A model generated the notes under the pieces. The model was given only the letters and a program-made list of their open reading frames with translations, was not told the DNA's origin and ran no database searches. This document shows positions 31,215 through 62,461 of a stretch of DNA of 64,000 nt, piece by piece; within the stretch, counting starts at the first letter, position 1; every line of letters begins with the position of its first letter. This DNA is from Candidatus Omnitrophota bacterium (GTDB taxonomy: Bacteria; Omnitrophota; Gorgyraeia; Zapsychrales; JANLHA01), in assembly GCA_023247795.1 (NCBI GenBank), contig JAHFFT010000008.1:1519-65518 (forward strand), in the 5' to 3' direction. The translations under genes and the position numbers were made by a program.

Positions 31215-31275
31215 AAACCCCTTTCTTTTCTATTACTTTTTCTGGGGGACTTGTAACTGGGGACTTGTTGCTAAA

Positions 31276-32277
31276 TTATGGGACTTCGACCTCGTCAAAA
31301 ATTCGCTTAATCAAATCTTCCGATGTCTTCTCTTCGGCCTCAGCCTCGTAAGTGACAATGACCCGATGACGTAAGACATCCATCCCAATGGTTTTGATAT
31401 CTTGCGGAGTGACATATCCCCGTCCCTGCAAAAAGGCGTAAGCCCTGGCTGCCACCGCCAAATGAATGGTGGCCCGCGGCGAAGCGCCGTATTGGATCAA
31501 ACCTTTGAGTTCATTGAGCTTGTAATCCTGCGGCTGGCGGGTTGCCCCAACCAAATCAACGATATATCTCTCGATCTTCTCATCCATGTAAACTTCATTC
31601 ACCACCTGACGGGCGCGGATGATATCTTTCGGGCTGACGATCGGCCTCACGTCCGTCTTAAAATCGGTCTTAGCCATCCGACGAAGGATCGCCAGTTCTT
31701 CTTCTTTACTTGGATACGTCACCTTCAATTTCAACATAAAGCGGTCAACCTGCGCTTCCGGCAAAGGATAAGTGCCCTCCTGCTCAATGGGATTTTGCGT
31801 TGCCAAAACAAGAAACGGGTCGTCGAGCTTAAGAGTTTCCTCGCCGATCGTGACTTGCCGCTCCTGCATGGCCTCGAGCAGAGCACTCTGCACCTTGGCT
31901 GGTGAACGGTTGATCTCGTCGGCTAAAATGATGTTGGCGAAAATCGGCCCTTTTTTGATATTGAAATTCCCGGTCCGCTGATCATAAATGAGTGTTCCGG
32001 TCAAGTCCGCCGGCAGCATGTCGGGTGTGAACTGCAAACGCTGAAATTTGGTTTGGATCGCCGATGATAAGGTCTTGACCGCCGTGGTTTTGGCAAGCCC
32101 AGGGACCCCTTCGATCAAGATATGGCCGTTGGCCAAAAGACCGACGATGAGCCGCTCCAATAGCTGCTTTTGCCCGACGATGATCTTCTGCGTCTCCAGC
32201 AAAAGCGCCTCAAGAAAACTGCTTTCCTTCCTCACTCTTTCATTGATTGCCGAAATATCGAATTCTGCCATGACCAA
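31276..32277 (-). CDS. MoxR-family AAA+ ATPase
   Basis: 333 aa; Walker A GVPGLAKT, Walker B ILADEINR, LATQNP sensor region. Confidence 0.85.
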   Translation of the reverse strand: MVMAEFDISAINERVRKESSFLEALLLETQKIIVGQKQLLERLIVGLLANGHILIEGVPGLAKTTAVKTLSSAIQTKFQRLQFTPDMLPADLTGTLIYDQRTGNFNIKKGPIFANIILADEINRSPAKVQSALLEAMQERQVTIGEETLKLDDPFLVLATQNPIEQEGTYPLPEAQVDRFMLKLKVTYPSKEEELAILRRMAKTDFKTDVRPIVSPKDIIRARQVVNEVYMDEKIERYIVDLVGATRQPQDYKLNELKGLIQYGASPRATIHLAVAARAYAFLQGRGYVTPQDIKTIGMDVLRHRVIVTYEAEAEEKTSEDLIKRIFDEVEVP

Positions 32278-32415: not shown

Positions 32416-32476
32416 AAGTTAACAATAAGAGGGACTGTCCCCTAAGTTGACAATAAGAGGGACTGTCCCCTACCTA
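32416..32476. repeat. Tandem ~30-bp direct repeat (aagttgacaataagagggactgtcccct x2) carrying degenerate copies of the locus palindrome, immediately after giant-1 TAG stop
   Basis: Directly visible; RC reads TAGGTAGGGGACAGTCCCTCTTATTGTCAACTTAGGGGACAGTCCCTCTTATTG. Confidence 0.75.
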
Positions 32477-35400
32477 GAAAGGCCTAAAAATTGTGGTAGA
32501 TTGGCTACCGGACGTATGCTAAGGATGATTGGGGTGAGGCCGTGAATCTCAATCGATTCCAAGTCCTGCGGACTGACCTGCAAATCTAGGCCTTGCCCAC
32601 GCACATTGAGATTGACATTTTGCGGATTGAAATCAATACCTCCGGTACTGCTGGATGATCCGGGGTTAACCTCTTTTGGTGTATCTGGGTTTCCGGTCTG
32701 TACAGCCTTGTTGCTGCTCTGCAAATTTTCCCAAAAACCAAACGCCTGGGGCGAGATTGTAATATTTGGATTTGTCGGAAGTTCTACTCTGCTCTTATCA
32801 TCTGAAGAAAGAAAAAAATTATCAAATGACTTCGCAATGGGTTCATGTTTTGCCAACATAACAGTGGCCAACAATTGATTGCCTTCGGAAAATTTTCCTC
32901 CCTTAGTATCGTGGGTTGTTTGCATTCCTTTAAGAACAACAAACACCTGATTTTGCTCCATCCTGGTGCCACTTAAGGATAAAGAATACATCCATTCAAA
33001 AAAATGCCCCAATTCATGCACCATGGTCTCAGTGGGTTGATGCAAGTGCCCCCTGCTGATTCCCGATTGTGAATCGATGGCATCAGCCAAGTTGGCGCTG
33101 ATATAAACAGTATTGGTCCCCACAAAGAGACCGGAAAAATAAGGATTCTCCTGGGCAAGCCTGAAGTCGGTAAACCCCACTTTCTGAGCCATACTTGCCA
33201 CCAAAACCATCAGCCTTTTTTCATTATCAGTTTCCGGCTTTTTTTCAATTTGAGTTAAGTCGAGATTTTTGATTGCCTGTAAAATTCTCGCCATATGTTG
33301 ATGCTGCGCGGCATGAGGATCTTCACTGGCACCTTGATAATCAACTCCCCGCTTCTCAGCCTCTCTCCTCGCCCTTTCCGCGTTGATCTTCTCCTGAGTT
33401 TGCAGACGGCGGATATAAAGACTGGTTTTCTCCTCTTTCCCTTCTTTCGTAAACACTTCCAGTTGAGTAAAAAACGATAAAAGCACCCTCTGCTTCAATT
33501 CCTTTTCTCCAGCATCAACGGCATCTACCCCATCAATCATTTGTTTCAGAGAATCCAATTCCCAATGTTGTACAGGGTGTTCCGGGATTTCTTCTTTATC
33601 ATCCACTTTCTCATGGGCCCTATTGATCCGCGAAATCAAATCGGTTAACGTCGTCGTTCTTCCTTCCTCCGAAGTCAAATCAATGTGATCGGCGTAATTA
33701 ACAACGTTCCAATAATTTTCATTCTGCGATGCCTCCCAGTCCTCTGGAAACGACTCAACCGGATAATTCACGTTATTCAATCGTTCAACAGCCAGGGCCT
33801 TATAAAACTCCAAGGCAATATATTTCTGAAGGACCTCTTTAAAATCGTTGTCCTCTTCTTCAAAGGCATCCCGATTCTGATCCACAGTCAAAGGAATTTG
33901 GATCACCAGACGAAGTCGATGAAAATGCCCGGTCCGGCTTTTGTTTTCTTCTCCCTCGTCGGATTTATCATCTGCCAGTAACAACTCAGGAATGAGGGCC
34001 AGCAAATAACTCTCCATTTTAAGGTCATGCACCCTCAAACCATTTTTATCAACGATCTGAATCGGCACCCCCGGATCCTCCGTTGAATAAATGCGCATTT
34101 TCCCCTCATATTTTATCATCTTCTTGGTGCGCGGATGCGGGGCAATGAAATCAGTCTCGGTTAATATCTTTTTTCCTTTAACAGTCAAAGGGCTCAGTTT
34201 GTTCGCGTCATGAATATCGTCCTTGAAAAAAATCTGAAAACTCTCATCCTGTGACATCCCAGCAAACATCTTCCAACTGCGTTTGGCCAGCATCTGATCC
34301 AACTGCGGAATGGTCTTCTTCAAACTCTTAACGCGGCGTACCATGAAGTTAGCTTTCAATTGACTCGCGTCGCAGCGACGCACCCTGGTCAAACGCACCT
34401 GATGGGCTTCCCGATCAAGAACCATCACAAACATAAAGGCCTGTCCGTCACGATCCTTGGCGATGATCTCAATGCGGTCAACGCCGGCAAACGTGGTATA
34501 TTTACCAGTCCCAAAATAACCAGAAATTTTTCCCAACTGAGCAAAGGCCTCTTTGGTGGATTTCGGAATGATCAAAGCGAGCATCTTGCCAGGTACCGGA
34601 CCGTTGCCATCATCACTGATCTCTTCAATCAACTCATTAGCTTCTTCGTCCTTATAAAATTCCACAACCATATTTTTTGCCCCGCCATCCTTGGAATTTT
34701 GTGGCAGCTCGGCCGCGTATCCACCGGCTTCCCTTTGTTTCTGGGTATAATTATCGATTTCTGCTTTCAACCACTCGTCGTCAGGATAAGCCGCGATCAG
34801 GTCCCTTTGCTCCACCAACTCATCAATGGTGTGCATGTCCGCTTCGGTTTCCGGCCTCTGTTTAAGATCAAGATTCCAATTTGTTATTTTCTCAACAGGA
34901 AGACCATAATCATCCTTCAAGACATCCTCTCCTAGCGGGTCAAGGCGTTTCTTGACCCGGACCGGGGGCGCCTGATTGGTCAACAAGACAACATAGTCAG
35001 CCGCGTTGCCCAGATCTTCTAACCGGCGCTCGTCCTTTAAGGCCCGCGCAATTTTGCCTGAATCAACCTCGGAAAACGACTGGTACCATTTTAAAAGATA
35101 TTCCCCGCTGATTTGCGGATCCAAAAATAATTTCAATTGCCCCATCACGATCTCGATCGCCTGATCTTCGGCCCGGCCGGCCTCTTGCAGAAATTCAACC
35201 ATTTTCACGATCGTGTTGATCTCCAAACGATCTCCCCGCAACCTTCTTAACTCTGCCAATAACTGGTAAATCATAGACATCTGCTGCCACTCCCGCAAAG
35301 TCTGCGGCAGCCAGCCCAACATCATCACTTCAACCGCGTGTTCATCAATCGACGTTAAATCGATCTGCAGATTAGGATTCATGGCCAATTCAAATAATCC

Positions 35401-38400
35401 TTCAAATAAACGCTGATAACAATCTTGGCGCGTAAGCGAATTATCAATACCTTTCACCTGCTGGATCAATCGATCAATCAAGGTCTGATTGGTTGCGTCC
35501 GCGTGATTTAACACCTCAACAATCCGCTTCATCCGTCTGCTGAATTCCTCAGACGGCAGACCTCGCGTGTCGACTACACTCGCTTGAGAATCTACGGCAG
35601 ACTTGAAACGCTGATGAATCCCCCGCTCCTGACGTCGGTAAAAATCCTTAAACCGCTCTGAAAATTTATTTTCCGGCGATTCCCGATATTCCCGTGGAAA
35701 AAGGGATAAAAACGGTTCATAGGCCGTTTGCGCCTCGCTGATCCACTGATCGTGTTTGGATAAAACCTGTTCTTCCCAAAACGTACGGATTCGCTTTTGC
35801 CGGGCAAGCTGTTGTGCGCTCACCCTTACCTTACGAACCTTTTCCAGGTAGCGATCGGGATAAAAATAACGAAATTCATTTTCTCCTCGACGAAACTGAA
35901 AGTTATGGCCATAGGCCTGATAGACCTCGAAGCCGGATTCGACTTCATCGGTGATGTCATAGAGATGATCGTCTTGATCCAACAAATAATACCTCTCGTC
36001 ACGGTCTTGAAAAAGAATGAACGTGTTGTCTTCATTGACAAAACCATTTTTTATATCCATCCGCGCCTCAGTCATTGCGTTAGAAAATATATTTTCGATC
36101 TGCCGATTTCCTTTATATTCAAAACCGACTTTATTGCCTTTTAAACTGCCCAAATCATTTGACCAGTTTGATGGAGACTCGAATACTACCTGGGGGTTAT
36201 TTCCAAATTCTTCAATAAACTTTTTCTGCCTTACAGTCCCCTCCCGCCCTAAAGTAATCAAATCATCCTGATCAGTGATTATAAATTTTGTATCACTGTA
36301 AATGTTATCGGTATCTTTATAATGCAAAGTATAATGATCATCTTCATCCTCGGCTGGAAATAGTGCAATCTCCCGCCTAACTAAAGTTAAATTTTTATTT
36401 TCATATTCGATCCAATATCTGGGCAGGTTGTCTTTACCACCATTGATGACTGCCAATTTATTAAATTTATTACGCCCATCCAATTTAATAGGTGCCTGCC
36501 TAGGTTCCGGGCCGATCTTGCCAGTAAGCGGATCCTTAATGAATTCATAAAAATACTCATTTCTTGAGTCATATTCTGCAATGAACAAATAAACCCTTTG
36601 GCCGTCTTCGGCGATCGAGATACTGCCATTACCGAGAAAATCTTTATCGAACTCGGCAACGGATATGATTTCCCCTGTTCCCAAATGAACAATCCGACAA
36701 TTAGCTTTCCCCAGATTAACAATGGCAAAATTTCCAGTGTGATCAATGAGAACGTTTTCCGCTGTTCCCTTAAATATTTTATTACCACTAACCAAATCCA
36801 TAACAAAAAATTCACTCGTTGACTGATCCTTAAGAATGACAACATCGGCGTGATGATCGACATATAATTCATCATAATACATATACCCGCGCGCCTGATG
36901 AGATCCCATTACATGATCAAAAATAAAAGCAGCCTTCCTGCCTTGGCTATCACGTCCTTCATGGATCGAAAAACGGCCGGAATGAGAAAAATAAATTTCT
37001 TGCGTTCCCAGGTATTTAAGTTGATTTCCCTTGCCATCGTCATAATCTCCAGGGTGGACTGTATGAAACATAGGCAGGTTATTCGGTAGATTGCGAATCC
37101 CATCCAGAACACCCCAAACACTGCCCATGGCCTCTGTTCGACGATATTTGATATACTTTCCTTTGACCTCAACTATTTGATACCCCTCAGCATTGAATAA
37201 TGAAATCCGCGCCTCCAACTTTTGCCGATCAACCTCTGGCTCGCCTTCCGGCTTTTCCTTGGTGAACGGCTTTGCCTCCTGATCAATCTTGGTTATGAAT
37301 CCATCATCAACAAAACGCAAGTAAGGATTGACATAGATGACATTTCGAGTTTTTGGATTTTCTAAAACAAAATATTTTCCATCGAATGAGACGACCGGAT
37401 AATCATTTGCGTCGGCAAATTCAGCGCTGGTCGTACCATCGGGCAGATCCAAAACCTTGAGCTGTTGACCTTCTCGGATGACGGCATACTGCCCATCGCT
37501 AGACATGGCGACCAAGTCATACTCAACTGGAGTATCTAGAACTTGGTCATCCAAAAAATCACGATAAGACAATAGCTTTCCGTTAGCAACGGTATAAAAG
37601 GCCACTCCTTCGCGATAATAAACGATATCGCCTTTAAACCGAACTTTTTCACCTGTTTTCATCTCTGTTGCTTCCTGTGCTTCGACTTGTTGTTCTATCA
37701 ACAATGGAAATTTGGGATGAATACTCGATAAAACATAAAGGAAGTTAAACAGCTTATTTTCTCCCCTATAAACTCTGCCAAGCAAAAGCTCCGTTAATTC
37801 AATTCGATTCGCGAATATTGAGGACATTGATTGACCAGTCGTATCCAACATAATCTCCCCATCTTGATCGACAAAAAACCGTCTCCCCTCCAAGGTCTCG
37901 ATGACACAAAATTTATCCTGATCGTCAGCGTCATTAAAGGAGCCGAAATTAACGGCTGTAATGTGATTAGCATTAGCGATGATATATGGATTTTGAAAAG
38001 GATGTTCCCATGTTAGTTCCGGGGTCGCTGCGGTACTAATCAGCTTATGCGCCGCGTGAATGTATATTTGGAGCTGACCAGAATCAGTCTTAAAAACCGA
38101 AAACCGCTGCTGCGGGTCAGTGTAAACATTCCGGCCGGTAACGACATTCCCATTTTCTAAATCCATCCAGTAGAACTTACCGTCCGCGGCTTTGAGTTTA
38201 GCCATATGTTCAATCTCGCCATATTCGTAACTTACAGCCTCAAAGACAACATTCTGATGAAATTGCAAATCCCAGCTATAAAATTTCCTTATTCCGTTCG
38301 TCTCCTCCAGCCACATCACAAAGAGGCCGTTTTTACTCATGCGGACATCGTGCGCGCGACGGTCCGGCTCATATTTAAGAACTTCGGCAAAATCATCGAC

Positions 38401-41400
38401 CTGTTTTTCGGTTTCGGTATCGAGCATCGTGATTAAATTTTGAGTCGATATCACTGTTTCCGGCACATAAGCATACCTGCCGTCTGGACTAATTAATACT
38501 TCTTGACCACGCACTCCCAATTCTCTCACATAATTACTGTCTAAAATTTTAAAGAGTATTTTCTTTTCTTTAATGAAAAGAACTTCCAACAAATAAAAAT
38601 TATTTCTTAGAGGAATGATTGATTTAAACCGATACCCTTCACGATTCTTGACCACCTGCCCAGAGTTGATATCAATCAATTGACCTTTGTCATCAATCAT
38701 ATACCGTTTCCGCGCTCCTTCCGGAACCCGTTGATTTGATGGAATCAGCTCCGGCGGGTCTTTGGTCAAAAATTGATTGATCGCCTCAGAATCAATCCCT
38801 CCGGTCGACCTGGCAAACCGATAAGTCAATCTTTCTAACAGTTCCACTGTCTTTTGCGGTGTTTCCACTTCATAAGACGTCACCACCGTCTCATCGGTTA
38901 AAAGTTTGATCAACTGGGCTTGCTGGTAAAGCTCGATCTGCTCGCCCATCGTTAACTTTTGCCGTTTCCTACGTTCAACCAAAGCATTGAAGCGGGCCAC
39001 AAATTTTTTCGGGATCGCCACATACCCATCACCCTTAATCCGCGGAAGGGGGTGCTTCTTTAAAAAATCAAAGGTGTTGATATCAAAATTTTCAAATTCG
39101 TTGATAGTGTCCTCTTTGAAATCCACGGCCACCAAAGGAATTTCCCGGTCTTTTCCGTCGATGTTTCGAATCAAACGAAAAACAGCGGTGTCAACAACCT
39201 CAGCGCCTAAGGCCTTCAAACTGATCTGATCGTTCCAGTCAAAAAGGTGTTTGTCCAAATAAATGGTGGGATGTCCTGTTTCCACCTGGGCGAACTGCCG
39301 ATCATGCGGCAAAAAAACATACCCTTGGCTTTGCAGGTCCGCGACCACAGCCGCGATTCTATTTTTGACCGCATCGGTGATCTTACGGACGATATACTGA
39401 TTGTCCTCATTGTTTCCAGCCAAGGCCTGTAACCCGATGATCATCATGTTGATATATTTCAGCAGCCCGACAGGATCAGCATCGAGTTCAGGATTGGCTA
39501 GCAAGCCTTCCACCATCCGCTCAACGGCAAGTTTGATCGGCCAGCGCTGCCGCGGATCGTGTTCAGAAGGAAAAATGATCCCGCTCCTTGCCTGGTTGAT
39601 CTCAACCATGATCCCAAATTCCAGCACCAGTTTCCCCGGCACAATCGCGTCTGGATTGATCTTTTCGCCGACGGGGATTGTGGTGATGACCTCCTCGCGC
39701 CGGGCGATCGCGATCTCTGACTTTTGCTTTTTCGTGTCATGGATCACCATCAATTCCTTTAACTCGTCCTCTAAATTCTGTTCGGTCACGTAAGCGGGCC
39801 TTTTCTCCCCGCCCGCGGGCACCATCATCCGACTGACAGGTGAAGCCCCCATCCCTTTACCGTTATCAATGACCTTAATTTCGCGATCATCAAAAATGAG
39901 ATTGATTTCCTTACCCGTCGACTGTTTATCTTCGATGGTCGCGGCCCTTTGACCTGCCGGCATCAGGATACGGCGATGCTCTGCGCCGTTGACGACTTCC
40001 TCTATCCCACGCAATCTGGTTTTAATGGCGATATCCTTAACATAAGCGAATCGGTCATGGATTTCTTCTTTGATGCTCGTCAAGGAATTGAGGGATTTAT
40101 GTTCGTAAGGAATTTTTCCTTTGAGCTTTACACGTATAACCGTGCCGTTTTCATAAGCATTGTTTTCGGCGGCGGCCCGAAAATCATTCCTGGAAACCGC
40201 TTTGATCTGGATATACCATTGCCCGGTTGGGACGCGCAGGATCGTGAGCTGATATGGTGTACCACCTTTCTGTAGAGTATGCACATCAATCCGGTCCTCG
40301 CCGGTCGCCTCCAGCCAGCGGATGATCTGTTTGACCCCTTTTCCAAACTGTCCGAGCCGGCCGCCCAAAGCGTCAATGCTGTTTGAGGCCGCCTCAATGA
40401 TCCCTTGTTTGCGGGCGTTGCTCCCTTGCTTAAAAACTGTCTTTTCCAGCAAGTCCGACGGTTTATAAGTACCGGCGTTGATGGCATCGATTGATTCACC
40501 GTCGTAACCGCTCAAAGATAGGTGTTGAAGGATCTGCTGATAATAATTTTTCCTTTTCCTTGGATTGTATTCGCTTTCATCCGTGATGATGTTTAATTTT
40601 TTCAAAACCGCCTTGAGTTCATCTCCCTTCAAGCTGCCCTTTTCCATCCGCTCTTGAGCACGAATGAAATGCCAAATGCTGACACCATGGAACCCCTTGC
40701 CGTCGTCGTATTCCTTGGTGGTTGGACTGTTTTTAATTTCGTCGGTGGAACTCAACATCAACTTATCCATGCTGGACGCTGGCGCGGCATCCATTTGACC
40801 CGACGCTGGTCCGACAATGTCTTGCGTCAGCGTGTCAACAATCTCGACCTCGCCGTGGGAGAGCAACGCGGCAGCACTCACAGAAGAAACTTGCCGGAAA
40901 ACCCTTTCTGTTTCAACTCCGGCATTGGTCCCGCCGCCAAAATACTTGCGCGGGATCGCGCTTTTCGAAACAGGATCGGATTCTTCCCGAATCAAGTTAT
41001 AAACCCCCTTGCGGTAAGCCTCGATATACCGTTCATAAATCTTCTGGTTCACACGCTCATCCTCAACTTGAACACCGTTGGTCTTATTCTGATTCACGTA
41101 CTTTTGGCCCAGCAAACTTGACTTAAGAGCGCGCTTGTACCACGTCGCCAAGATAAGCGCGTCATAGATCTGGCGCAGTTGACCAAAATGCGATCCCTCG
41201 TTGATTTCCTTTTCTAAGGCCGGCAAAACGATTTCGCGCATGACGGTGTTCGACAATTCATTCAATGGTTCCGCATCCTTTGCCGCTGTTGAGTCCGGTC
41301 CCTTTTGATCCTTTTGCCGATTGGCGTCAGCAGCCAAATAGTCCGCATCCAGCATGACCTTAAGGTGACTCTTGACGATATACGCGGTATTTTCGTGGGT

Positions 41401-41985
41401 ATAAACATCGGCGCTATCGGGCACGATCCAGACCTTATTAAAAGTGTTGATCGGAATATTGGTTGTTCCGTATTGCGCGAGGGCCCGCTCATAAACCTTT
41501 TTCCAAAAAATTTGGCCGAACTCATCTTCGGGATACAACAAAGAAGCGGTGATTTGTTTCAAAAGATAATCTTGCGCCAAAAGGTCGCGGCCCATGTCGG
41601 TCCGGCCGAATTCGTCCGGGACAACGCGCTCTTTCTCGTAGGGCGAAAGGTTCACCCACTGGTCTTCGGCGCGGGTGGTGAGTGAAGCTAAAAAATATTT
41701 GATCAATTGGGTCGAGGATTTTTCTTTCTCGTCCTTGTTCAATTTCTGATCACCGAAATCAATAATGAATTCAAATCGAAAAGGCTCTTGAGGATGTACG
41801 CGCATTCCCTTAATGACCGGTGGATGAAAAGCTGTACTTAACCGCACCAATTCCCCGGGAACGGGAAGATTTAACAGTGCGGCCGTTGACTGGGCATAGA
41901 CCGGCGGCGGCAGGATCAATAAAAGAATTAAGAGAGGGGACAGTCCCCTGTGCAAAACCTGTGTAAAACTAGCGTATTTTTTCAT
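32470..41985 (-). CDS. Giant secreted/surface protein 1 (~3,171 aa): N-terminal giant-family domain, two GHKL/Hsp90-like ATPase modules, beta-propeller-like repeats, HExxH motif, conserved C-terminal domain
   Basis: Uninterrupted 9.6-kb ORF. Listed ORF start 42108 is a TTG; ATG at 41983-41985 (MKKYASFTQVLHRGLSPLLILLLILPPPVYAQS) gives a classic signal peptide and is preceded by TTGTTA-N17-TATACT. GHKL N-box IIEAASNSIDALGG (~40360-40395) and G1 box VIDNGKGMG (~39850). Second GHKL-like ELPQNSKDGGA / DDGNGPVPG / GYFGTGKYTTFAG (~34400-34750). SxDGxY-type repeats ~36500-38500. TMVHELGHFFEW at ~33005-33040. Confidence 0.85.
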   Translation of the reverse strand: MKKYASFTQVLHRGLSPLLILLLILPPPVYAQSTAALLNLPVPGELVRLSTAFHPPVIKGMRVHPQEPFRFEFIIDFGDQKLNKDEKEKSSTQLIKYFLASLTTRAEDQWVNLSPYEKERVVPDEFGRTDMGRDLLAQDYLLKQITASLLYPEDEFGQIFWKKVYERALAQYGTTNIPINTFNKVWIVPDSADVYTHENTAYIVKSHLKVMLDADYLAADANRQKDQKGPDSTAAKDAEPLNELSNTVMREIVLPALEKEINEGSHFGQLRQIYDALILATWYKRALKSSLLGQKYVNQNKTNGVQVEDERVNQKIYERYIEAYRKGVYNLIREESDPVSKSAIPRKYFGGGTNAGVETERVFRQVSSVSAAALLSHGEVEIVDTLTQDIVGPASGQMDAAPASSMDKLMLSSTDEIKNSPTTKEYDDGKGFHGVSIWHFIRAQERMEKGSLKGDELKAVLKKLNIITDESEYNPRKRKNYYQQILQHLSLSGYDGESIDAINAGTYKPSDLLEKTVFKQGSNARKQGIIEAASNSIDALGGRLGQFGKGVKQIIRWLEATGEDRIDVHTLQKGGTPYQLTILRVPTGQWYIQIKAVSRNDFRAAAENNAYENGTVIRVKLKGKIPYEHKSLNSLTSIKEEIHDRFAYVKDIAIKTRLRGIEEVVNGAEHRRILMPAGQRAATIEDKQSTGKEINLIFDDREIKVIDNGKGMGASPVSRMMVPAGGEKRPAYVTEQNLEDELKELMVIHDTKKQKSEIAIARREEVITTIPVGEKINPDAIVPGKLVLEFGIMVEINQARSGIIFPSEHDPRQRWPIKLAVERMVEGLLANPELDADPVGLLKYINMMIIGLQALAGNNEDNQYIVRKITDAVKNRIAAVVADLQSQGYVFLPHDRQFAQVETGHPTIYLDKHLFDWNDQISLKALGAEVVDTAVFRLIRNIDGKDREIPLVAVDFKEDTINEFENFDINTFDFLKKHPLPRIKGDGYVAIPKKFVARFNALVERRKRQKLTMGEQIELYQQAQLIKLLTDETVVTSYEVETPQKTVELLERLTYRFARSTGGIDSEAINQFLTKDPPELIPSNQRVPEGARKRYMIDDKGQLIDINSGQVVKNREGYRFKSIIPLRNNFYLLEVLFIKEKKILFKILDSNYVRELGVRGQEVLISPDGRYAYVPETVISTQNLITMLDTETEKQVDDFAEVLKYEPDRRAHDVRMSKNGLFVMWLEETNGIRKFYSWDLQFHQNVVFEAVSYEYGEIEHMAKLKAADGKFYWMDLENGNVVTGRNVYTDPQQRFSVFKTDSGQLQIYIHAAHKLISTAATPELTWEHPFQNPYIIANANHITAVNFGSFNDADDQDKFCVIETLEGRRFFVDQDGEIMLDTTGQSMSSIFANRIELTELLLGRVYRGENKLFNFLYVLSSIHPKFPLLIEQQVEAQEATEMKTGEKVRFKGDIVYYREGVAFYTVANGKLLSYRDFLDDQVLDTPVEYDLVAMSSDGQYAVIREGQQLKVLDLPDGTTSAEFADANDYPVVSFDGKYFVLENPKTRNVIYVNPYLRFVDDGFITKIDQEAKPFTKEKPEGEPEVDRQKLEARISLFNAEGYQIVEVKGKYIKYRRTEAMGSVWGVLDGIRNLPNNLPMFHTVHPGDYDDGKGNQLKYLGTQEIYFSHSGRFSIHEGRDSQGRKAAFIFDHVMGSHQARGYMYYDELYVDHHADVVILKDQSTSEFFVMDLVSGNKIFKGTAENVLIDHTGNFAIVNLGKANCRIVHLGTGEIISVAEFDKDFLGNGSISIAEDGQRVYLFIAEYDSRNEYFYEFIKDPLTGKIGPEPRQAPIKLDGRNKFNKLAVINGGKDNLPRYWIEYENKNLTLVRREIALFPAEDEDDHYTLHYKDTDNIYSDTKFIITDQDDLITLGREGTVRQKKFIEEFGNNPQVVFESPSNWSNDLGSLKGNKVGFEYKGNRQIENIFSNAMTEARMDIKNGFVNEDNTFILFQDRDERYYLLDQDDHLYDITDEVESGFEVYQAYGHNFQFRRGENEFRYFYPDRYLEKVRKVRVSAQQLARQKRIRTFWEEQVLSKHDQWISEAQTAYEPFLSLFPREYRESPENKFSERFKDFYRRQERGIHQRFKSAVDSQASVVDTRGLPSEEFSRRMKRIVEVLNHADATNQTLIDRLIQQVKGIDNSLTRQDCYQRLFEGLFELAMNPNLQIDLTSIDEHAVEVMMLGWLPQTLREWQQMSMIYQLLAELRRLRGDRLEINTIVKMVEFLQEAGRAEDQAIEIVMGQLKLFLDPQISGEYLLKWYQSFSEVDSGKIARALKDERRLEDLGNAADYVVLLTNQAPPVRVKKRLDPLGEDVLKDDYGLPVEKITNWNLDLKQRPETEADMHTIDELVEQRDLIAAYPDDEWLKAEIDNYTQKQREAGGYAAELPQNSKDGGAKNMVVEFYKDEEANELIEEISDDGNGPVPGKMLALIIPKSTKEAFAQLGKISGYFGTGKYTTFAGVDRIEIIAKDRDGQAFMFVMVLDREAHQVRLTRVRRCDASQLKANFMVRRVKSLKKTIPQLDQMLAKRSWKMFAGMSQDESFQIFFKDDIHDANKLSPLTVKGKKILTETDFIAPHPRTKKMIKYEGKMRIYSTEDPGVPIQIVDKNGLRVHDLKMESYLLALIPELLLADDKSDEGEENKSRTGHFHRLRLVIQIPLTVDQNRDAFEEEDNDFKEVLQKYIALEFYKALAVERLNNVNYPVESFPEDWEASQNENYWNVVNYADHIDLTSEEGRTTTLTDLISRINRAHEKVDDKEEIPEHPVQHWELDSLKQMIDGVDAVDAGEKELKQRVLLSFFTQLEVFTKEGKEEKTSLYIRRLQTQEKINAERARREAEKRGVDYQGASEDPHAAQHQHMARILQAIKNLDLTQIEKKPETDNEKRLMVLVASMAQKVGFTDFRLAQENPYFSGLFVGTNTVYISANLADAIDSQSGISRGHLHQPTETMVHELGHFFEWMYSLSLSGTRMEQNQVFVVLKGMQTTHDTKGGKFSEGNQLLATVMLAKHEPIAKSFDNFFLSSDDKSRVELPTNPNITISPQAFGFWENLQSSNKAVQTGNPDTPKEVNPGSSSSTGGIDFNPQNVNLNVRGQGLDLQVSPQDLESIEIHGLTPIILSIRPVANLPQFLGLSR
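41932..41951. repeat. Locus palindrome gcACAGGGGACAGTCCCCT inside giant-1 signal-peptide coding region (part of 34-bp segment shared with giant-2 upstream region)
   Basis: aggggacagtcccct at 41935-41949; extended match gttttacacaggttttgcacaggggactgtcccc (minus strand) vs gtttttaacaggttttgcacaggggactgtcccc upstream of giant 2. Confidence 0.8.
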
Positions 41986-42001
41986 AGTAAATGATATAAA
42001 G

Positions 42002-42030
42002 AGTATAAAACATAATACTATAAATAACAA
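42002..42030 (-). promoter_or_regulatory. Putative sigma70-like promoter of giant gene 1 (TTGTTA-N17-TATACT)
   Basis: Minus-strand TTGTTA tttatagtattatgttt TATACT, 16 nt upstream of ATG 41985; same TATACT -10 as giant 2. Confidence 0.35.
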
Positions 42031-42127
42031 AACATTAGAGGAATAATGGTCCGCTAGATCAGAATGGACATTTCCTAAAAATTGTAAATTTGTAACTATT
42101 TTAATCAAAACGATTTACGCACTTATT

Positions 42128-42145
42128 AACAGGGGACTGTCCCCT
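42128..42145. repeat. Locus palindrome AACAGGGGACTGTCCCCT overlapping giant-2 TAG stop
   Basis: RC reads ...CAT CAA TAG GGGACAGTCCCCTGTTAATAAG; perfect 15-bp palindrome. Confidence 0.85.
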
Positions 42146-45100
42146 ATTGATGAAGGGCAACTTCTTCGGGTGTGACAGGTTGCGGTGAAATTCCTAAAAA
42201 TAGCGGGAGGTTGGTGATGGGGACGGTATGCGTAATGACCGGGGTAAAGCCTTCGATGGGGATCTGCGAAAGCCCTTCGGCACTGTCCGTGACTTGCAGA
42301 TCAATGCCTTCCCCTTCAACCTGCATTTGAATCAACGATGGGTCCAAATCAATCCCGCCCGGGATCTGAGCTTCGGGAGAATTTTGCCAGCCAGGATGAA
42401 GCATGACGCTCGGAATGATCTCTACAGAAGTGTTTAGGTTCATTGGTTCTGACTCAGTTTTTGACAGGAAAAAAGCATCATTTCTCAACATCTTATTATA
42501 CATCTTACCTGCACCAGCTTGAACTCTGGCATCTATTCCTCGGGCGTCCATCAAACCCATTAAAACCCTATGAAAAATCTTCTCCTCGCCCTCGTCTTTA
42601 AATTGCTCTCTGACCTGTTGCAACGTTAACTCTACATCAACTAACGAGTTCAGCAAGTTGACGAGAAAAGCATTGACCTCGATCGGTTCGGCCGCTTCCT
42701 CTTGTTGGATCACTACTGGTGCGGCCGCAACCCCCAAAAATTCCGGAGTCATGTCGGCCCTGGTAAGGGGCTTTTGTCCGTCGATCCTCAATTCCAAATC
42801 AGCTCGGTCGATCCGTTTAAACAATTCCGCGATGCTTTGACGCATCTCGGGAATGAGCTCACCAGATGTCATCTCAATGACCTGTAAATTCGGTAATGCT
42901 TCTAAAATACTGATCAACCGATCATTGAATTTCATAAATGGCAACCTCAGCGTTTTGATTCGTTTGATTTGTCTCAGGAATTCAATCCGCAAATCTTTTG
43001 GGTTGACCTGACTCAAATCCAAGGAAAACGTATCATCTGGTCCACGAATAAAATGATTAGAAACGTTATGAACTATACCAATATGCTTTAAGAAAGATAA
43101 TTGATGGTCTAAGGAGAACCCTGATCCAATTTCTCCAATCACCTGCTTAGATACATCCTCATACGTTATCGCAGCTTTATTTCCATTTTTGATCGTTAAT
43201 TCCTTTCCTCGCGGATGAATGGCAATAATGAGGTAGGCCACAAATCCAAAGTCCCAACCAACAGTCTGGTCTTCCGTCAGTATTAATTCTTTCAACCTTG
43301 GCCATTCGCACGTATGTATGACCAATCTCAAATAATTCCCAACCATTGTTGGCAACGCCACCGAAGCAAGATTCCTTAATTTATGCAAATCTTTTAAGTA
43401 CAAACTTTCGCCTGAAGGTTTACTTTTTGTAAGATCAAGCTTAATTACGGTGGTCCCATCTGTATCCTTGAACGTTGAAAGTGTCTCATCGGTCAAAGGC
43501 ATGTGACTGCGTTGCAAAATTTCTTTTGCCAATGCAATCTGTTCTGGAAGGCTCAATTCCTTCAGCTCCGGCAGTTCACTCGAAAATGGTTTGACCTCTG
43601 CTGACAACTCTTCCTCGCCAGTTTTCTTATACTCATCCGGCACATCGTCGTAAGTAACGGTAAACTTGTCATTAACAAAAACAACCATATTCCTGCCATT
43701 GGGATGTTGGGCCATAAAACGATAAAGATCATCTCGGCCGGACATCGAATCCTCTAAATGAATACCCAAATAGGTCAAATTTGGCATGCTGTTCAAAGAA
43801 TTGAGGTTGCCGTCCACAGCATCAAATTCTAAATTAAGATAAATGATATTTTCCATTGGCGGGATGGTTTTCAATGTTAGGGTGCCATTCCCTTTGAGTT
43901 CAAAATGACGAAGACTCACCAAATCTTCAAACCCAAGCTGACCGGTTGAAAAAATGCTGGCATTAACTTTCAGCGAATACAAATTGGGGAGTCCCTTTAA
44001 CTTGTCCATATTCGTTAGCGAATGCTTTATTGCTTGACCATTTTTATCATGCTGCAGATCTAAATCAATCCGCTTAGTTTGTTCAATTGCTGGCACATTG
44101 ATACTCATAAACTTTTCTTTTGAAAAATTTGCCCCCATAAAGTAACCGACTTTCGCGACTTGCCCATAAAGTGTATTTTTCCCGCTTGACGGAAAATTCG
44201 GCATTTGCCCGCCACGTGTATACATGAGTCCATTGAGAATCACGATCATATGCTCGCCGTTAGGATGCGTTTCCAATAATTGTTTTACTTGCTCGATCGT
44301 ACAGTACGCACTAGTAATTTTAACCACTTGCAATTTCTTTAAGTCATTCAATAGCTCAAGATCGATTTGCTCATCGCTTGTGAAAACAAGATGTCTTAAT
44401 TCTTGCAGTGGAGACAAGAATTCAAGGCCGCCAGCTTCAAGTCCATAAATGGTTAACTCCCTTAACTGTGGAACATGACGTAGTTCTTTTAAATTTTCTT
44501 CGTCCCATATCATAAACATTTTCTTTAAATCCGGAATTTGCGAAAGCGGCTGCAAACTTGGAACCTGACCGTCAAAATGAAGACCAATGGTTTGAAACGG
44601 TTGGCTCAATTCCATAAAACCCTTGATCATTTGATCGGGACCGAAAAAGGCCCTTACCGCGGCCGCTTGCTTTGTAAACGACTCCATTTGCGCGTTCATA
44701 TCTGCCAACCTCTGCAACGCACGAGCTTGTTCATCTTGCGGCGCTGGGCTCAATAGCGCGGGACTCAATTCTTGTTCCTCCCTCTTCATCGCATCAATCC
44801 GTTCGCGGACATCAGTGACCACTCCGCCCGAATCAAATGTTTTCAATTGGAAAACTTCTGGATAAGGATGGTCAACAAGCGCTTTGAGGGCATTGGTCAA
44901 TGTCAAAGTTTTGGTTGAAGGAATCTTTGAGAAATCCACAACAATGCTTCCTGCGACATGGGTCAACGTTCCCTTAACATCACCGCTGGGAATCGAATAA
45001 AGCCTCCCTAGATTTTCCACATAATGTTTTAGAGCGGACTGTAAATCAATAACAACCTGAATTTCTCTCTCAAAAAATTTTTCTATCTCGTCTACTCCCT

Positions 45101-48100
45101 TTAACACCCATTTCTTGCGTGGAGGCTGTAAAGTAAAATCCTTTCGAAGGGGATGAGCCCGGCATAAATGCAAAATTTGATGGGAAGGCACATTCGTATT
45201 TTGCAAATCAAGAATACGAATAACGTTACCATTAAGATGATACAGGCTTTGCAATTTGGGGGTGTTCAATTCGAGCTCAAAAACATCGACACCTTGCAAA
45301 CAGGGAAGTTCAGTGGCTTGCGGATCATCCACCGTCAAGATTTTCAATTGTTGGAATTCATTAAGGTCGCGCAAATGACCATAATCGACGATCAGCGAGG
45401 CATTGCGCAAGATCACCTGCTTTAAAAAACTCAAATGATTCAGCTTGCTCAAATCAGGAATGGTAGTCACATTCTTAAGGACAAGCGCCAGATACGGCAA
45501 TTCCTTTTTGCCGGATTTTTTTCCGGGCTGAATATGAACGTCCGCTTGATCAGGTCTTAAACCCAATTCTTTCAAAATTTCTTTAGCAGTGATCGACTGG
45601 AAAGCAATCACCTTATCAACAGCACTATCAACGATACCCTCTATGCCAAATTCCATTCCTGCGGCAGGGACTATTATTAAGTTGTCCTGATTAACATGCC
45701 ATAACAAAAGATCGCTAGTCGCAAAATCTCTAGAATTATCGACAGTATTCATCCGCGAAAGATCAAGATACCGCAAATGACGCGCACCCAATAAAGGCCG
45801 GAAGTCACCGTCTTTACTAAACGTAGAAGTCCCCATATCAATACGTTTCAAAAAAGTCAGTCTTTCAAAAGGCAGTTCACTGAATTTTTTATAATTTTCC
45901 GGAGTGATCTTAAATTCAGCCGCGATATACGGACGATTGTCGTCATCAAAATGGATGGCTGTGGGAGTCACGAGACCGGAATCGAAAAGATAATCCGCCT
46001 GATCATCGATCGTTTCCAGCCAGTTTGTTGGTTGGGTCTCTTCCAACCCAGCCGCACTGACAGTTGACGGCTGAGACTTCTCTTCAACTTTGGCCGGAGA
46101 TTTTTGTCCCGACAGTTGATTCTGATTTGCTTTAAGGAAAGACTCGTAACTTCCGTAAAAATATTTGAAACCACTGTGGTCTGTCTCATCCCTCAGATTG
46201 ATATTTAAATTCGGACGCTGTTGATAAAACTCATTGATTTGCTCTATGGTCAGGCTCCCATCCCAGGGTAATGTCAATGTTCGCAAATTGGCACATCTCA
46301 AAATAGGTGATAAATCTCGGATCCCGGATTTCGCTAAATCCAGGCTAATGATGGCATCGAAATCCTCTAAAAAACTAAAATCACCGGTCAGGACCGGCGC
46401 AGAAAATGTTAAAAAGCCGACATTTTTATTGGTCGCTAACGCTCGTAACGACTGATAATCCTTAGCGTCGACAGAAGAAAATTCAACAATGACCTGATCC
46501 AATCTCAAGTCATCCGACAAGACGCCCAAATCCACATTCGCTGATCCGTCAGTTGTGACAGGAGGCTTCTTAATTTTTAATATCACATATCCACCAAGCC
46601 CTGATTCCGCGGTGATGCTAAAATTTTGGTCAAACACTAACGAGCTTCCCTCTGTCAACTTTTGCCTAATATTTTGCATCGCCTCTTGTCTTACCTCTTC
46701 AACGAACGATGGATCTAGATTCGCGAGTTTCCATTCTCGACCATCCGGCATCTTGACTTTTAGCATCATACGATTAGGATGATGGGCCAGAAACCGCCGG
46801 ATGTCCTCCTCAGTCACGGAGCCCGGTAATAAATTGGAAAGATCAACAGCGGTCAAATTATAAGCACCATAAAGAAAATCGAGATCATTGAGCGCGGAGG
46901 CGCTCAAATCCACCTTGGTCAATGCCGGACTATTTATCAACGCCCTTCTCTTGATTTTCCCCAAATCTCTAGCACTCATTCCGCTCAAATCCAAAAGTAA
47001 TTCTTTGTTTCCCTCCCCTACGTCCTCCCTAAAACGAATCCTATACGAATCAAATCCCCCAATCGCAGCTGCTAATAAACCAATGAGATAATATTTTTGC
47101 GGATTATTATCATTCACGGCCTGTTCGGCCGATTCCGGATTAAGGTTCGAAGCCTCTTCAGGTTTTATCCGATCACCATACTCGGCCATGAATCGATCAT
47201 AACTTTCCATTGTAAATTCGTCTCCTGATGGAAGAAAAAATGTTAATTGAAGATTTGGCCGCTGTTGATAAAATTGAGCAATGTCTTCTAAAGATAAACC
47301 CTGCCCCAAATAAACACTCAAAGATTTAAGATATTTCAACCGCAGGCAAGGCGATAAGTCATTGGCGGCTTTATGCAACACCAAATCATAAAGGTTGGGG
47401 AAGAATTCAACGATCTGGTTCAAATCCAATGGATTAGGATTGGATGCGTCATCAATCTGAATATCTCTAATATTTCTATTTAATCCTAACGAAGATAACG
47501 CTCTCTTCCCTCTTTCTGTGGACGCATCAAAATTGATTTTCACTTCATCTAACCTTAAGACATCTTGCAAAACCGACAAACTTGCTCTTAACGATACGCC
47601 AGTCAATGAACCCGTCAAATCTTTATTAGATGGAGGGGATTTCAACACTAAAACCACTGAACCCTCATCGGTTTCATCAACCGAAAAATCAGTGCCTTCT
47701 TGCATTCCTTGTCCTTTTAACTTATCAACGATGTCTTTTTTAGCTTCTTTGACAGCTTCCGTTTTATAGTCTTCCTCTAAAGATCCAAAATTCAATTCAC
47801 TCCCATCCGGCAAAAATATCTGCAGAAACTGTCGATTGGGATGGTGGGCCAGGAAATATTTAATATTTTTAAGCGAAGCTCGCGAAGGTAAGGAACCTTT
47901 AAAACTAATGACCCGTAGGTTATGAGCACTGTAAAACGTGGCAAGTACTGTAGGATCCACATTTGCCGTTGCTAGCCCAACCCACTCCAAGTCTGGAAAA
48001 TCGACAAACGCATTACTTTCAATTTGACGCAGAACCGCGACCGGTTGATCGAACAAATCTACTGCCAAACTTTGACTCCTATCTATTCTAGGGAGTGGCG

Positions 48101-51100
48101 CAACATTGCCTTTATCAAAACCCGGAATCACGCTTGCCAAATAATCCGCCAACCGCTGTTTTTGCGAAGAAATCTCTTCAGCCGGCGAGCTATCTAATGC
48201 CTTTCCCAATGGAAGCTCATCCTGCGTCCCGGCCAGCTCGCTTAACTGTCCCTCATTTTTTGCAATGAAATCTTGATAATCTTTATAATCGACCAGCCCT
48301 GAGTTCCAGCTGGAAGGAAGCAGACACAACTTCATATCCGGCCGCTGCCGATAAAAATCATCCATGCCCTGCAAACTTAAAGCCTCACCACGATATAGCA
48401 ATAACTGTCGAAGATATTTCAACTGCAAGCAAGGGGACAGGTCATTTGCGGTTTTCGGCAAACCCAAAACATAAAGGTTGGGAAAATCTTCAACGATTTG
48501 CTGCAAATCCAATGAATTAGGATTTGCCTTTGAATCAAACTGGACATTTCTAATGTTCTTATTTTTACCTATTTGTCGTAAGGCTAACTTCCCTCTTTCT
48601 GAAGAAGCGTCAAAATTGATTTTAATTTTATCTAGCGGAATAATGTCATTCAACACCGACAAATCTGCTGCAGACGGAATCCTTTTCAACACTAAGACCA
48701 CTGAACCCTCGGTTTCATGAACTGAAAAATCAGCGAGTTCGACCATTCCTTGATTCCTCAGCCTGGCAACGATGTTTCTCTCAGCTTCTTTACAGACGCC
48801 TGCTTTACTTTTTTGGTCTAAAGATTTAAAATCCAATTCACTCTCATCCGGCATAACAACCTTGAGAAACCAGCGGTTAGGATGGCGGGCGAGAAATTTC
48901 TTGATATCCTCCTCACCTATTGAACTAGACGTTTTTTTCAATCCTTTAAAACTGATCTCCTTCAAGTTGCGGGCGCTGTAAAGAAAATTCAAATCCATGG
49001 GTTCTGCCTCGGATAAATCCACGGCCTCCAAAGCTGGATAATCAGAAAACGCGCGATCTTCTATTTGATGCAAATCGTAATTGGAAAGCCCGTGCAAATC
49101 CAGAACCAAATATGACCCATTCCACAAGGCAACCCGATGAGGATCAAACCCTATAATCCTTCCTGCCAAATATACGGCCAGCCGCTCTCTTTGCAAGAAA
49201 TTATTCGTGCTTTCTTCTTCTGACGGCTGCGCTCTCTTGGCCGACGTTTCAGTTTGCTGAGCGGCCTGATTCTTACTGGATGTGGCCACGGGCCACCAAA
49301 TTTTTCTACCATCAGATAGCTCGATTTCTAATTTTTCCCGATTTTTATGCCTCATCAACAAATTCACGAGGAATTCATTCGGCATCTCTTGCCTCAATTT
49401 CAACCTTGTCAAATTCTCCAAACTCAACAAAGGATCGAGCCGGTCAGCTTGTTCAACTTTAATTTTGATATCGACCTCTGTAAGCAAAGAAAGTTTGGCA
49501 AACTCATTTTGAGCGAATGTAGCGAATGTATCATAATTCTCTTCCGTGACATCCACCTGCAAAGAAAAATAAGGCTCACCAGTACTGATATGTTTAAGAC
49601 TGGGCACAAAAAGCGCAAATTCCGAACCATGCTCCTTACTGAAATCTGACAAAATATTGAATTGGGCAATGCCTTCCGGGCCCGTAGCCGATATTTTTTC
49701 CTCCGCCGGCATTTGCACTTCAACTTGCGCCTCTACCACCTGCCCCTCCCGCTCCAAGTCCGCTAATGTCAATTGCTTGTCGTCCGGCATCAATATTCGT
49801 AAATTCTTTCGGTTGGAGTGAACGCGTAAAAAGGCCTTGATCTGATCCACGGAAACGGCTCCGGGGAGCAAATTCTTCAAAGACAATAATTTTAGGTTCT
49901 TAAAATTTAATAAACCATCGAGATATTCGACATCCGTATTATCCAATTCAACGATCCCGACATTATGAAAAGAGGTCGAACGTATTGCCTGGCTAGCCTT
50001 CGATGACGGATGAAAGATATCTCCAACCCCCTTCAAGTGCATCAATGACAAGACAATCCCCGCCCCTTTGGGAAAAGTATCATCTTGAAAGTCGACAACC
50101 CGATCCGAACCAAACCCGTTTAGAATACCGCTAAACAACTCAAACAACTGATTTTTCTGCTCCTCGACAGATAATTCCGGTTTCTGGTTTGGCGCAGAAA
50201 CTTGCGTCGTTACCTCCTCCTGTGCCAACGCCTTCAAACACTCCCGATAATCGGCAAAGACCCTGCCGTCGGGCATGATGATGCGCAGACTGGCAGCGAT
50301 AGACGGGGGTAAAAGCCTAATGATCCTGGTGATCTCCTGATTGGTCAAAGGTTTTATTTTGGGAAGTGTCATATCCACAAAACCATCTTTATCGGAACGA
50401 ACGTTAATTCCCCTTGCACTTGGCGTGTTTCCTTCGTCTATGATACTAATCAATAACAAATCGAGTTCTGCCGCATCCAACCTCATTCCCTTTGCGATCT
50501 CTTGACTGTGCTGCTTTGTATACTTAGCCATGCTTTCTTCGTCAGCAATCTTGATTTCTTGATTAGGAAAGCTAATATGTAAAATAAATTTGTCTACAAA
50601 ACTAAACATTAAATTAAATTGCGATCTACCAATATCGGGATAACGTGTCCATAACTGAAGCACCTGCTTTGCGCTGACCTGTGAATCGATAAAAAGCTCC
50701 TGAATGGGACACCCAAATAAGGGGGCGATATTCGTTACCCCCGTACCGCTGAGTGAAATCGTCGCCTGATCCAAATCCACCCTTTCAAGAAAAGAAATAT
50801 CCGTCAACTGCGGATCATTGCTTAAGAGCAATGTCTTGTTTCCCCTATGCACATTCCATTTTGAAATTTCAGAAAGGTCCAGCCGACTAGGATATTCAAC
50901 ATTAAGAATTCCGAAGTAACCCAATCGATAAATCGCTGATAAATCCGGTAGACGGCCTTCGGTCAATTCGACATTGATTTGTATCATTTCTTTATTCACT
51001 TGCAGACGCACGGAGCCGTCAGGTAACCCTGGGATTTTAGCAAGTTCTCGCTGAGCAATTTTCAACTGATGATTAACCGCCTCCTCGATCTGCTCATGAA

Positions 51101-62443: not shown

Positions 62444-62461
62444 AACAGGGGACTGTCCCCT
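62444..62461. repeat. Locus palindrome AACAGGGGACTGTCCCCT overlapping TAG stop of the upstream partial gene
   Basis: Plus-strand ataaacaggggactgtcccctaaaag; stop codon cta at 62460-62462. Confidence 0.85.

Follow-up and report, generated by a model that had tools for sequence, protein, structure and literature searches.

In this study, a 64-kb stretch of a Candidatus Omnitrophota genome (64,000 nucleotides of contig JAHFFT010000008.1, here called the window) was analyzed, and its two adjacent giant open reading frames (ORFs), G1 and G2, both on the minus strand, were found to end in homologous tails that belong to a very large family of Omnitrophota proteins. Omnitrophota are uncultured, ultrasmall and probably predatory or host-dependent bacteria, and they are noted for proteins whose predicted lengths are the greatest in biology. 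It can be regarded as secure that the tail is a real, ancient and selected peptide module of a family without described relatives, and that the same polypeptide normally also carries a signal peptide and a conserved N-terminal domain (N-domain), with a swappable central region, referred to here as cargo, in between. The explanation that we favor, tentatively and with somewhat less than even confidence, is that the tail is an extended peptide that docks on the N-domain of its own or of another molecule, and that the two together form a chassis which anchors, assembles or presents the cargo.

The G1 coding sequence (32470..41982, minus strand) encodes 3171 amino acids from an ATG at 41982 to a stop codon at 32470-32472. 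This ATG is the likely start, within an ORF that extends from stop to stop over 32470..42108, up to a TTG at 42108. A 3171-residue protein identical to G1 (P0002) is present in the public collection. The G2 coding sequence (42144..62300, minus strand, stop codon 42144-42146) encodes 6718 amino acids, and its exact sequence is also found in the public collection, on an NCBI contig. BLASTP aligned the ends of the two proteins (E = 2e-12), and when each tail was compared with the whole window by tblastn, the other tail was the sole match (48% identity over 58 residues, E ~1e-14), with no further match better than E ~0.02. A previous sequence-only reading of the window had proposed a common C-terminal module for both giants, and the peptides that it quoted are the exact C-termini of G1 and G2, which confirms the module. 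The same reading had described the giants as otherwise unrelated. This holds for the region between the conserved ends, in which BLASTP found no similarity between G1 and G2, and the family as a whole carries the tail strictly at the C-terminus behind unrelated middle regions in thousands of proteins, but it does not hold for the beginning of the two giants, as their first ~360 residues, comprising a hydrophobic leader and the N-domain, are 51% identical (E = 5e-110, BLASTP).

The homologous core of the two tails comprises 57-58 residues with the pattern GGID(L/F)(N/D)P ... G(L/F)TP(V/I)I ... NLPxFLG. BLASTP, tblastn and profile searches located it at 32473..32643 in G1 (GGIDFNPQNVNLNVRGQGLDLQVSPQDLESIEIHGLTPIILSIRPVANLPQFLGLSR) and at 42186..42359 in G2 (GGIDLDPSLIQMQVEGEGIDLQVTDSAEGLSQIPIEGFTPVITHTVPITNLPLFLG), both on the minus strand. 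In G2 the core is followed by an extension of 13 residues (ISPQPVTPEEVALHQ, 42147..42185, minus strand), the G1 counterpart of which is LSR only. At the other end of G1, a Sec-type signal peptide (MKKYASFTQVLHRGLSPLLILLLILPPPVYA, followed by Q) was read from the translation at 41893..41982 (minus strand), and the N-domain of ~315 residues, LNLPVPG to RKYFGGG, lies at 40930..41874 (minus strand). The corresponding signal peptide of G2, which ends in ILCPTTTYA before K, was read from the translation and from family statistics at 62187..62300 (minus strand), and BLASTP and profile searches placed the G2 N-domain, LNLPVPG to RKYFSGG, at 61236..62177 (minus strand).

An exhaustive HMMER search of 1.84 billion representative proteins with a profile of three tails retrieved 3,908 protein clusters at E ≤ 0.001 and 709 at E ≤ 1e-10, and their named sources were nearly all Candidatus Omnitrophota. 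The best 150 matches were proteins of 76 to 4,743 residues in which the match ended a median of 3 and a maximum of 58 residues from the C-terminus. A word-indexed search with the two tails returned a single fragment (P0001), in which the tail comes after a PPDK_N-like 'LQVRPIT'. Tails of the family follow the consensus GGIDLNPxxLxLxTxGxGIxxxxPxDxxxLxxxxIxGFTPVIxxIxPxTNLPLLLG; in an alignment of 63 of them, G17, G18, I19, G53, P56 and I58 were invariant, and D20, G32, P63, N66, P68 and G72 were conserved in at least 90%. The tail is thus clearly neither confined to the pair of paralogues in the window nor poor in conserved positions, and an amino-acid pattern with constant G, P, I and N positions over 63 diverse tails indicates selection on the peptide. 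The extension after LLLG has a median length of 15 residues across the family and is net acidic, and in ~47% of tails it terminates in a (L/I/V/M)(S/T)x1-3 motif, such as LSxxR. A subfamily of tails (loci L098, L089, L129 and L116; proteins P0022, P0043 and P0055) has a longer C-terminal extension with the conserved ending PE(V/I)S(Y/F)xKSP(V/A)IKE(S/P)EY(E/A)L.

No Pfam or NCBIfam model matched the G1 and G2 tails or any of the 63 tails, the NCBIfam scans having covered the last ~240-250 residues of G1 and G2 plus the 63 tails, and in this respect the sequence-only reading, which had placed the tail outside recognized sorting families, was borne out. The N-domain likewise had no Pfam or NCBIfam match, and PDB sequences contained no real match to either the tail or the N-domain profile.

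The N-domain, extending from LNLPVPG to RKYF(S/G)GG, is the second conserved end of the family. A profile of 10 N-domain sequences (A4) was run on species-representative genomes and on the protein collection. In the genomes it matched at least 585 stretches, often with several loci from one metagenome-assembled genome (MAG), and the loci that were kept are almost all titled Candidatus Omnitrophota or Omnitrophica or labeled as an 'uncultured Planctomycetales' MAG. In the protein collection it matched 1,710 proteins at E ≤ 1e-20, with names almost exclusively from Omnitrophota, in a word-indexed search that was biased to short ORFs and carried little domain information. Among 149 family N-termini starting with Met, 93% contain a strongly hydrophobic window of 12 residues, preceded by an n-region with a net charge of about +3, and in 89% an Ala-Gln pair lies between the hydrophobic region and the N-domain, with V, S, A or G at position -3. 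Cleavage between this Ala and Gln would correspond to a canonical signal peptidase I site that leaves an N-terminal Gln, and the family proteins are predicted from these sequences to be exported. The pattern fits both G1 (PPPVYA before Q) and G2 (TTTYA before K), and the complete family signature, consisting of the signal peptide, LNLPxPG...WVNLSPYE...RKYFSGG at the start and GGIDLNP...GFTPVI...TNLPLLLG at the end, is present in full in both giants.

The two conserved ends are coupled. The N-domain was detected by phmmer (E ~1e-100 to 1e-130) in 50 of the 150 best tail matches, which corresponds to essentially every long, complete protein among them. A six-frame scan of 80 Omnitrophota genome loci and the window yielded 63 ORFs with both ends intact (759-6,720 residues), 29 N-domain ORFs extending past the edge of the locus, five complete N-domain ORFs without a tail, and six tail-only ORFs directly adjoining an N-domain-only ORF through a frameshift or an in-frame stop. 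These six comprise all tail-only ORFs whose 5' end is closed or nearly closed, and no complete tail ORF without an N-domain was found in these loci and the window. Because the 80 loci had been selected by the N-domain, a tail-first sample was drawn from metagenome contigs with a 7-tail alignment as the query. It contained 88 tail ORFs, 41 of which run off their 5' end; the N-domain is encoded in the same ORF in 31 of the 47 with a resolved 5' end and in an adjoining ORF in two, and at least two further tails (L124 and L130) are fragments of N-domain genes. A class of N-domain-less proteins among the database matches was considered and rejected, as most of them proved to be 3' fragments or parts of split genes; of five long candidates that were checked, one is the 3' half of an N-domain gene with a frameshift, two begin at contig edges and two are ambiguous.

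Several family genes are divided by a single in-frame stop into an N-domain part and a tail-bearing part. This stop is TAG in four of six cases (L051:18662-18664, L098:4644-4646, L103:5344-5346 and L124:427-429), TAA in L063 (4692-4694) and TGA in L074 (7697-7699). Such stops could represent errors, pseudogenes, read-through, or deliberate two-protein arrangements of receptor plus ligand. Some complete N-domain proteins without a tail (P0162, P0195 and others) end in hydrophobic, transmembrane-like segments and could be membrane-anchored versions of the N-domain; the stop of P0195 is one of the in-frame TAGs and is followed by a tail-bearing ORF (L103).

The cargo between the conserved ends varies in length from 160 to more than 6,000 residues and was homologous (coverage > 0.3) in 26 of 6,670 pairs of family members. 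Cargo has been exchanged even where the ends are nearly identical, as in P0103 and P0119, whose N-domains are 93% and tails 69% identical and whose cargo has no detectable similarity. Pfam analysis of 30 members identified HATPase_c, HEAT, GNAT, several methyltransferases, Pkinase, Response_reg, PfkB, Fic, HD, AAA and peptidase M48 domains, and other members carry ankyrin repeats or HAD, or PPDK_N or PEP-utilizers. Within G2, an AAA_5 (dynein/MoxR-type) ATPase domain (57861..58232, minus strand; Pfam E = 1.1e-8) is an example of cargo, and further Pfam signals were a weak LRR in G2 and a sub-threshold GHKL ATPase in G1. These are cytoplasm-type, cofactor-dependent domains, yet they are located downstream of a signal peptide, a paradox that has already been raised for Omnitrophota giants (10.64898/2026.06.07.730766).

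The exchange of cargo between near-identical N-domains may indicate that the conserved ends are important chiefly as DNA, providing homology arms or attachment sites for cassette exchange among paralogues, as in the orphan modules of contact-dependent inhibition (CDI) and Rhs systems, with little function for the tail peptide itself. Tandem arrays of family genes, with two to three copies in 19 of 81 loci and two in the window, are consistent with this explanation, and so are orphan tail fragments (ORFs of 49-108 residues) which alternate with toxin-antitoxin genes (PIN; MNT nucleotidyltransferase and HEPN) directly 3' of a family gene at L098:9624-11936 and L089:6762-8889; at these two loci it looks as if mobile cassettes had inserted into the tail-coding end and duplicated the tail. 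However, the tails of paralogues are merely 40-50% identical in protein and have diverged in DNA, those of G1 and G2 matching at the protein level only, and this divergence is far too great for homologous recombination. The conservation pattern of the 63 tails, which reflects selection on the peptide, also argues against an action at the DNA level, and we consider this explanation very unlikely.

The sole clean exceptions to the coupling of the two ends in the tail-first sample are an enolase fusion and small ORFs. The fusion (L146:3705-5543, metagenome contig Ga0209515_10024286) consists of a complete enolase, with Enolase_N and Enolase_C from residue 3, a linker of ~120 residues and then the tail; it lacks a signal peptide and is preceded by unrelated glycosyltransferase genes. 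The small ORFs, of ~130-180 residues with little beyond the tail, are located amid housekeeping genes (L112, L129 and L166). In addition, tail-only ORFs of 67-121 residues were found on contigs of 70-190 kb, in a word-indexed search with the same bias to short ORFs and little domain information. The tail is therefore portable, although it is usually coupled to the N-domain.

A possible physical relation between the two ends was examined by structure prediction. When the tail was modeled alone by AlphaFold2 (AF2) from the 63-sequence alignment, no regular secondary structure was predicted, with a predicted local distance difference test (pLDDT) score of 65.5 and a predicted template modeling (pTM) score of 0.21. 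Because this model has no strands and low confidence, the tail does not appear to be an autonomous beta-sandwich, the type of C-terminal domain that the sequence-only reading had suggested. A full-length AF2 model was obtained for a natural 744-residue member, P0044, with an alignment of 43 full-length sequences. In this model the N-domain (pLDDT 80-97) adopts a helix-rich alpha/beta fold with three beta-hairpins, the cargo (residues 370-576) has a pLDDT below 30, and the tail (residues 671-730) reaches a pLDDT of 71-93, with strands at residues 670-672 and 679-684, a helix at 695-703, and a confident but extended stretch GFTPFI...NFPLLLG. The helices neighboring the tail have a pLDDT of 55-69, below that of the tail, and the pTM of the whole protein (0.57) is higher than the N-domain alone, with 42% of the residues, could give. 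We infer that the tail packs on the N-domain, because it is ordered only in the full-length model, is predicted with higher confidence than the neighboring helices, and is accompanied by a pTM above the share of the N-domain.

On this basis, the tail may form the C-terminal part of a scaffold with two halves, which is the defining feature of a very large and apparently Omnitrophota-specific family of exported proteins, each with a putative Sec signal peptide that would leave Gln on cleavage, the ~315-residue N-domain, swappable cargo, the ~60-residue tail and a short acidic extension. Without a fold of its own, the tail would be an extended, proline-punctuated peptide that becomes ordered on packing onto the N-domain. 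Within one giant polypeptide (in cis), this contact would hold the beginning and the end together. Between molecules (in trans), it would produce head-to-tail links or bring in other proteins with a tail, for example the enolase fusion and the products of small tail-only ORFs. The N-domain and the tail would then function as a receptor/ligand clasp, similar in logic to cohesin and dockerin, holding variable cargo of a host-dependent or predatory bacterium outside the cytoplasmic membrane, including kinases, ATPases, methyltransferases, GNAT, Fic, HEAT/LRR/ankyrin repeats and glycolysis-type enzymes. A more specific form of this model, in which an exported receptor domain and a docking peptide form closed loops or head-to-tail chains and recruit tail-tagged proteins, so that a phylum-specific, undescribed chassis serves as a surface 'effector-some' of ultrasmall predatory or parasitic bacteria, seems doubtful to us, with a probability well below even.

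Several observations weigh against docking of the tail on the N-domain. The evidence for it consists of pLDDT and pTM values, and in the model the neighboring helical region (pLDDT 55-69) could be the actual packing partner of the tail, or the higher confidence of the tail might merely come from the different alignment. Foldseek searches of the P0044 model against PDB and BFVD gave nothing significant, and the N-domain has neither a fold relative in these collections nor a sequence relative in PDB. The sequence identities of N-domains and tails correlate weakly among family members (r = 0.34). Furthermore, docking in trans needs a shared compartment, whereas the enolase fusion has no signal peptide and the N-domains are predicted to be exported.

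The N-domain-less carriers of the tail (enolase and small ORFs) are explained at least as well if the tail is a portable signal, which would work on its own at the C-terminus for export, sorting or anchoring and be read by machinery encoded elsewhere, while the N-domain has a separate role, for example in secretion or retention. The position of the tail at the extreme C-terminus, behind unrelated cargo in thousands of proteins, also suggests a signal; the tail is unstructured alone, as are the signals of type I secretion systems (T1SS), and its restriction to a single phylum resembles that of lineage-specific sorting systems. However, no gene recurs beside the family genes in the 80 loci, where no sortase, peptidase, Omp85 or dedicated transporter was found, and the sortase- or peptidase-like partner that the sequence-only reading had considered is thus not supported as a recurrent neighbor. 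Components of the type IX secretion system (T9SS) machinery (PorK/L/M/N, SprA and PorU/V) were also not detected among the recurrent neighbors in the window and the 20-kb loci, and the only broad cluster of neighbors comprised generic PAS/two-component proteins. No curated sorting-domain model was matched, the motif is followed by an acidic extension with neither a transmembrane helix nor a basic cluster, the sequence is too strongly conserved for a T1SS-like signal, and order is gained only in the full-length context of the AF2 model. Moreover, a single pathway cannot easily serve both the majority of carriers, with their Sec signal peptide, and the enolase fusion, which lacks one. Taken together, a stand-alone signal appears somewhat unlikely.

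The nature of the cargo and of its borders raises another explanation, in which the N-domain and the tail constitute a membrane-active translocation device that delivers cargo to prey or host in a manner similar to multifunctional autoprocessing repeats-in-toxin (MARTX) toxins, with Gly-Gly and DxAM at the borders as processing sites. Proteins that have a signal peptide and carry cargo requiring ATP, S-adenosylmethionine (SAM) or acetyl-CoA (Pkinase, Fic, GNAT, methyltransferases, HATPase_c, AAA, and HEAT/LRR/ankyrin) are typical of injected effectors, and Omnitrophota have been described as predatory or host-dependent (10.1101/2023.11.21.568195). The DxAM motif, often DAAM, DKAM or DSAM, occurs within 80 residues after the N-domain in 37% of members and within 40 residues before GGID in 29%, and its frequency in cargo is 0.73 per 1000 residues against 0.10 expected, an enrichment of ~7-fold. 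A second motif, (A/S/G)SSP(V/I/L/M/A), has a similar linker role and is far rarer (4-5% at either border), and an invariant Gly-Gly marks both module borders (RKYFSGG and GGIDLNP). All three may be processing or linker sites. DxAM is, however, absent from the borders of G1 and G2 and is internal in G2 (DRAM at residue 2206 and DQAM at residue 2984). The top Foldseek matches of the P0044 model in PDB are ClyA-family alpha-pore-forming toxins (MakE, MakB, NheA and ClyA), in keeping with a membrane-active device, but they are not significant (E ≥ 0.28, probability ≤ 0.05, TM ~0.1). No repeats, protease domain or hydrophobic helices of the translocator type were found in either end of the family proteins, and enzymes of metabolism, for example enolase, PPDK_N and PfkB, would be odd effectors. 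Delivery of cargo to prey or host is accordingly regarded as improbable.

Directly downstream of G1 in the window, at 23083-32277 (minus strand), lies a complete aerotolerance-type operon in the order MoxR AAA, DUF58, a gene for a protein of unknown type, BatA, BatB, BatC (TPR), BatD and BatE (TPR/SH3). A functional link of this operon to the giants was rejected, as Bat genes are present in just 2-3 of 81 loci, and because of this limited recurrence the adjacency is taken as incidental. A neighboring ABC exporter was also considered as a dedicated exporter and dismissed; it is MsbA-like and adjoins lpxB. The other genes of the window are housekeeping genes (ilvC, pfk, metK, ahcY, ptsI, rpsB-tsf-pyrH-frr, lpxB and the msbA-like gene). 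Just upstream of G2, an ORF of 505 residues (62460-63977, minus strand) has no Pfam match and contains neither module of the family. A 15-nucleotide palindrome, AGGGGACNGTCCCCT, of which no copy is expected by chance, occurs four times (41935-41949, 42131-42145, 62361-62375 and 62447-62461) and flanks both giants, being located 5' of G2, over the G2 stop codon and within the signal-peptide codons of G1, and degenerate copies follow right after the G1 stop at 32430-32443 and 32458-32471. The palindrome may be an element of the repetitive extragenic palindromic (REP) type or a terminator.

The pair of N-domain and tail is unmentioned in two preprints that catalogue Omnitrophota giant proteins, a full-text search for the family motif strings retrieved no paper from the library that was searched, and the lipocone paper mentions Omnitrophota giants in general terms only. 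Polymorphic secreted proteins with targeting or docking modules at their termini are known, and there is a real chance that the mechanism in the Omnitrophota family is new. The two-part signature provides a simple handle on the candidate surface or effector repertoire of the phylum in any metagenome and a rationale for cytoplasm-type enzymes behind signal peptides, and the tail and the N-domain are two small, conserved and experimentally tractable modules. If the clasp model is true, it would represent a new principle of protein assembly; a sorting function of the tail would instead suggest that a pathway of secretion or anchoring has yet to be discovered.

A feature-by-feature comparison was made with T9SS C-terminal domains (CTDs), sortase, exosortase and rhombosortase signals, T1SS and repeats-in-toxin (RTX) proteins, two-partner secretion (TPS) and MARTX toxins, and none of these systems fits. 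Similar to the T9SS CTD (TIGR04183 / TIGR04131), which is a module of ~60-100 residues at the extreme C-terminus of many different Sec-exported and often very large proteins in one phylum, the Omnitrophota tail is strictly terminal. In contrast to it, the ends of G1 and G2 and the 63 tails do not match the Por_Secre_tail or type A or B CTD models of NCBIfam and Pfam, the tail is not predicted as a beta-sandwich of ~7 strands, the hosts are Omnitrophota rather than Bacteroidota, and the tail is coupled to a conserved N-domain, which T9SS cargo lacks. The LPXTG, PEP-CTERM and GlyGly-CTERM signals of sortase, exosortase and rhombosortase systems differ from the tail, which has no transmembrane helix or basic cluster and has an acidic extension after NLPLLLG; no NCBIfam model of such signals matched the same ends and tails.

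Giant T1SS adhesins of the LapA/MpIBP type share with the Omnitrophota proteins a giant size, a conserved N-terminal module, a variable middle and an unstructured C-terminal end, as well as short alanine-containing motifs near the N-terminal module (the dialanine LapG site in the adhesins and DxAM in the Omnitrophota family). T1SS substrates, however, have no Sec signal peptide, which 93% of the 149 family N-termini possess and the enolase fusion lacks. No RTX/HemolysinCabind match was found by Pfam in G1, G2 and the 30 members, the tail has a single GGID instead of GGxGxD, and its sequence conservation far exceeds that of T1SS signals. MARTX toxins also have conserved N- and C-terminal regions around an array of swappable effector domains, but they are characterized by long glycine-rich A/B/C repeats, an internal cysteine protease domain and T1SS export, and Pfam detected neither the repeats nor the protease in G1, G2 and the 30 members.

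TpsA/CdiA two-partner exoproteins and Rhs/CDI polymorphic toxins resemble the family in having a signal peptide followed by a conserved N-terminal domain of ~300 residues in very large polymorphic proteins, in their tandem and orphan modules and in the exchange of cargo. Unlike the TPS domain, the Omnitrophota N-domain is a helix-rich alpha/beta fold in the AF2 model instead of a beta-helix and has no Pfam TPS match, and unlike in TPS/CDI proteins, the variability is central and not C-terminal, with no adjacent gene for a TpsB/Omp85 partner. Cohesin and dockerin of cellulosomes have no sequence or fold similarity to the N-domain and the tail; dockerins are folded Ca-binding domains, whereas the tail is modeled as an extended peptide, and the putative receptor and ligand of Omnitrophota usually reside in one polypeptide. 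If the favored model is correct, the likeness to cohesin and dockerin would be one of logic, in which a short C-terminal module on diverse enzymes docks to a conserved receptor domain and thereby allows assembly at the cell surface.

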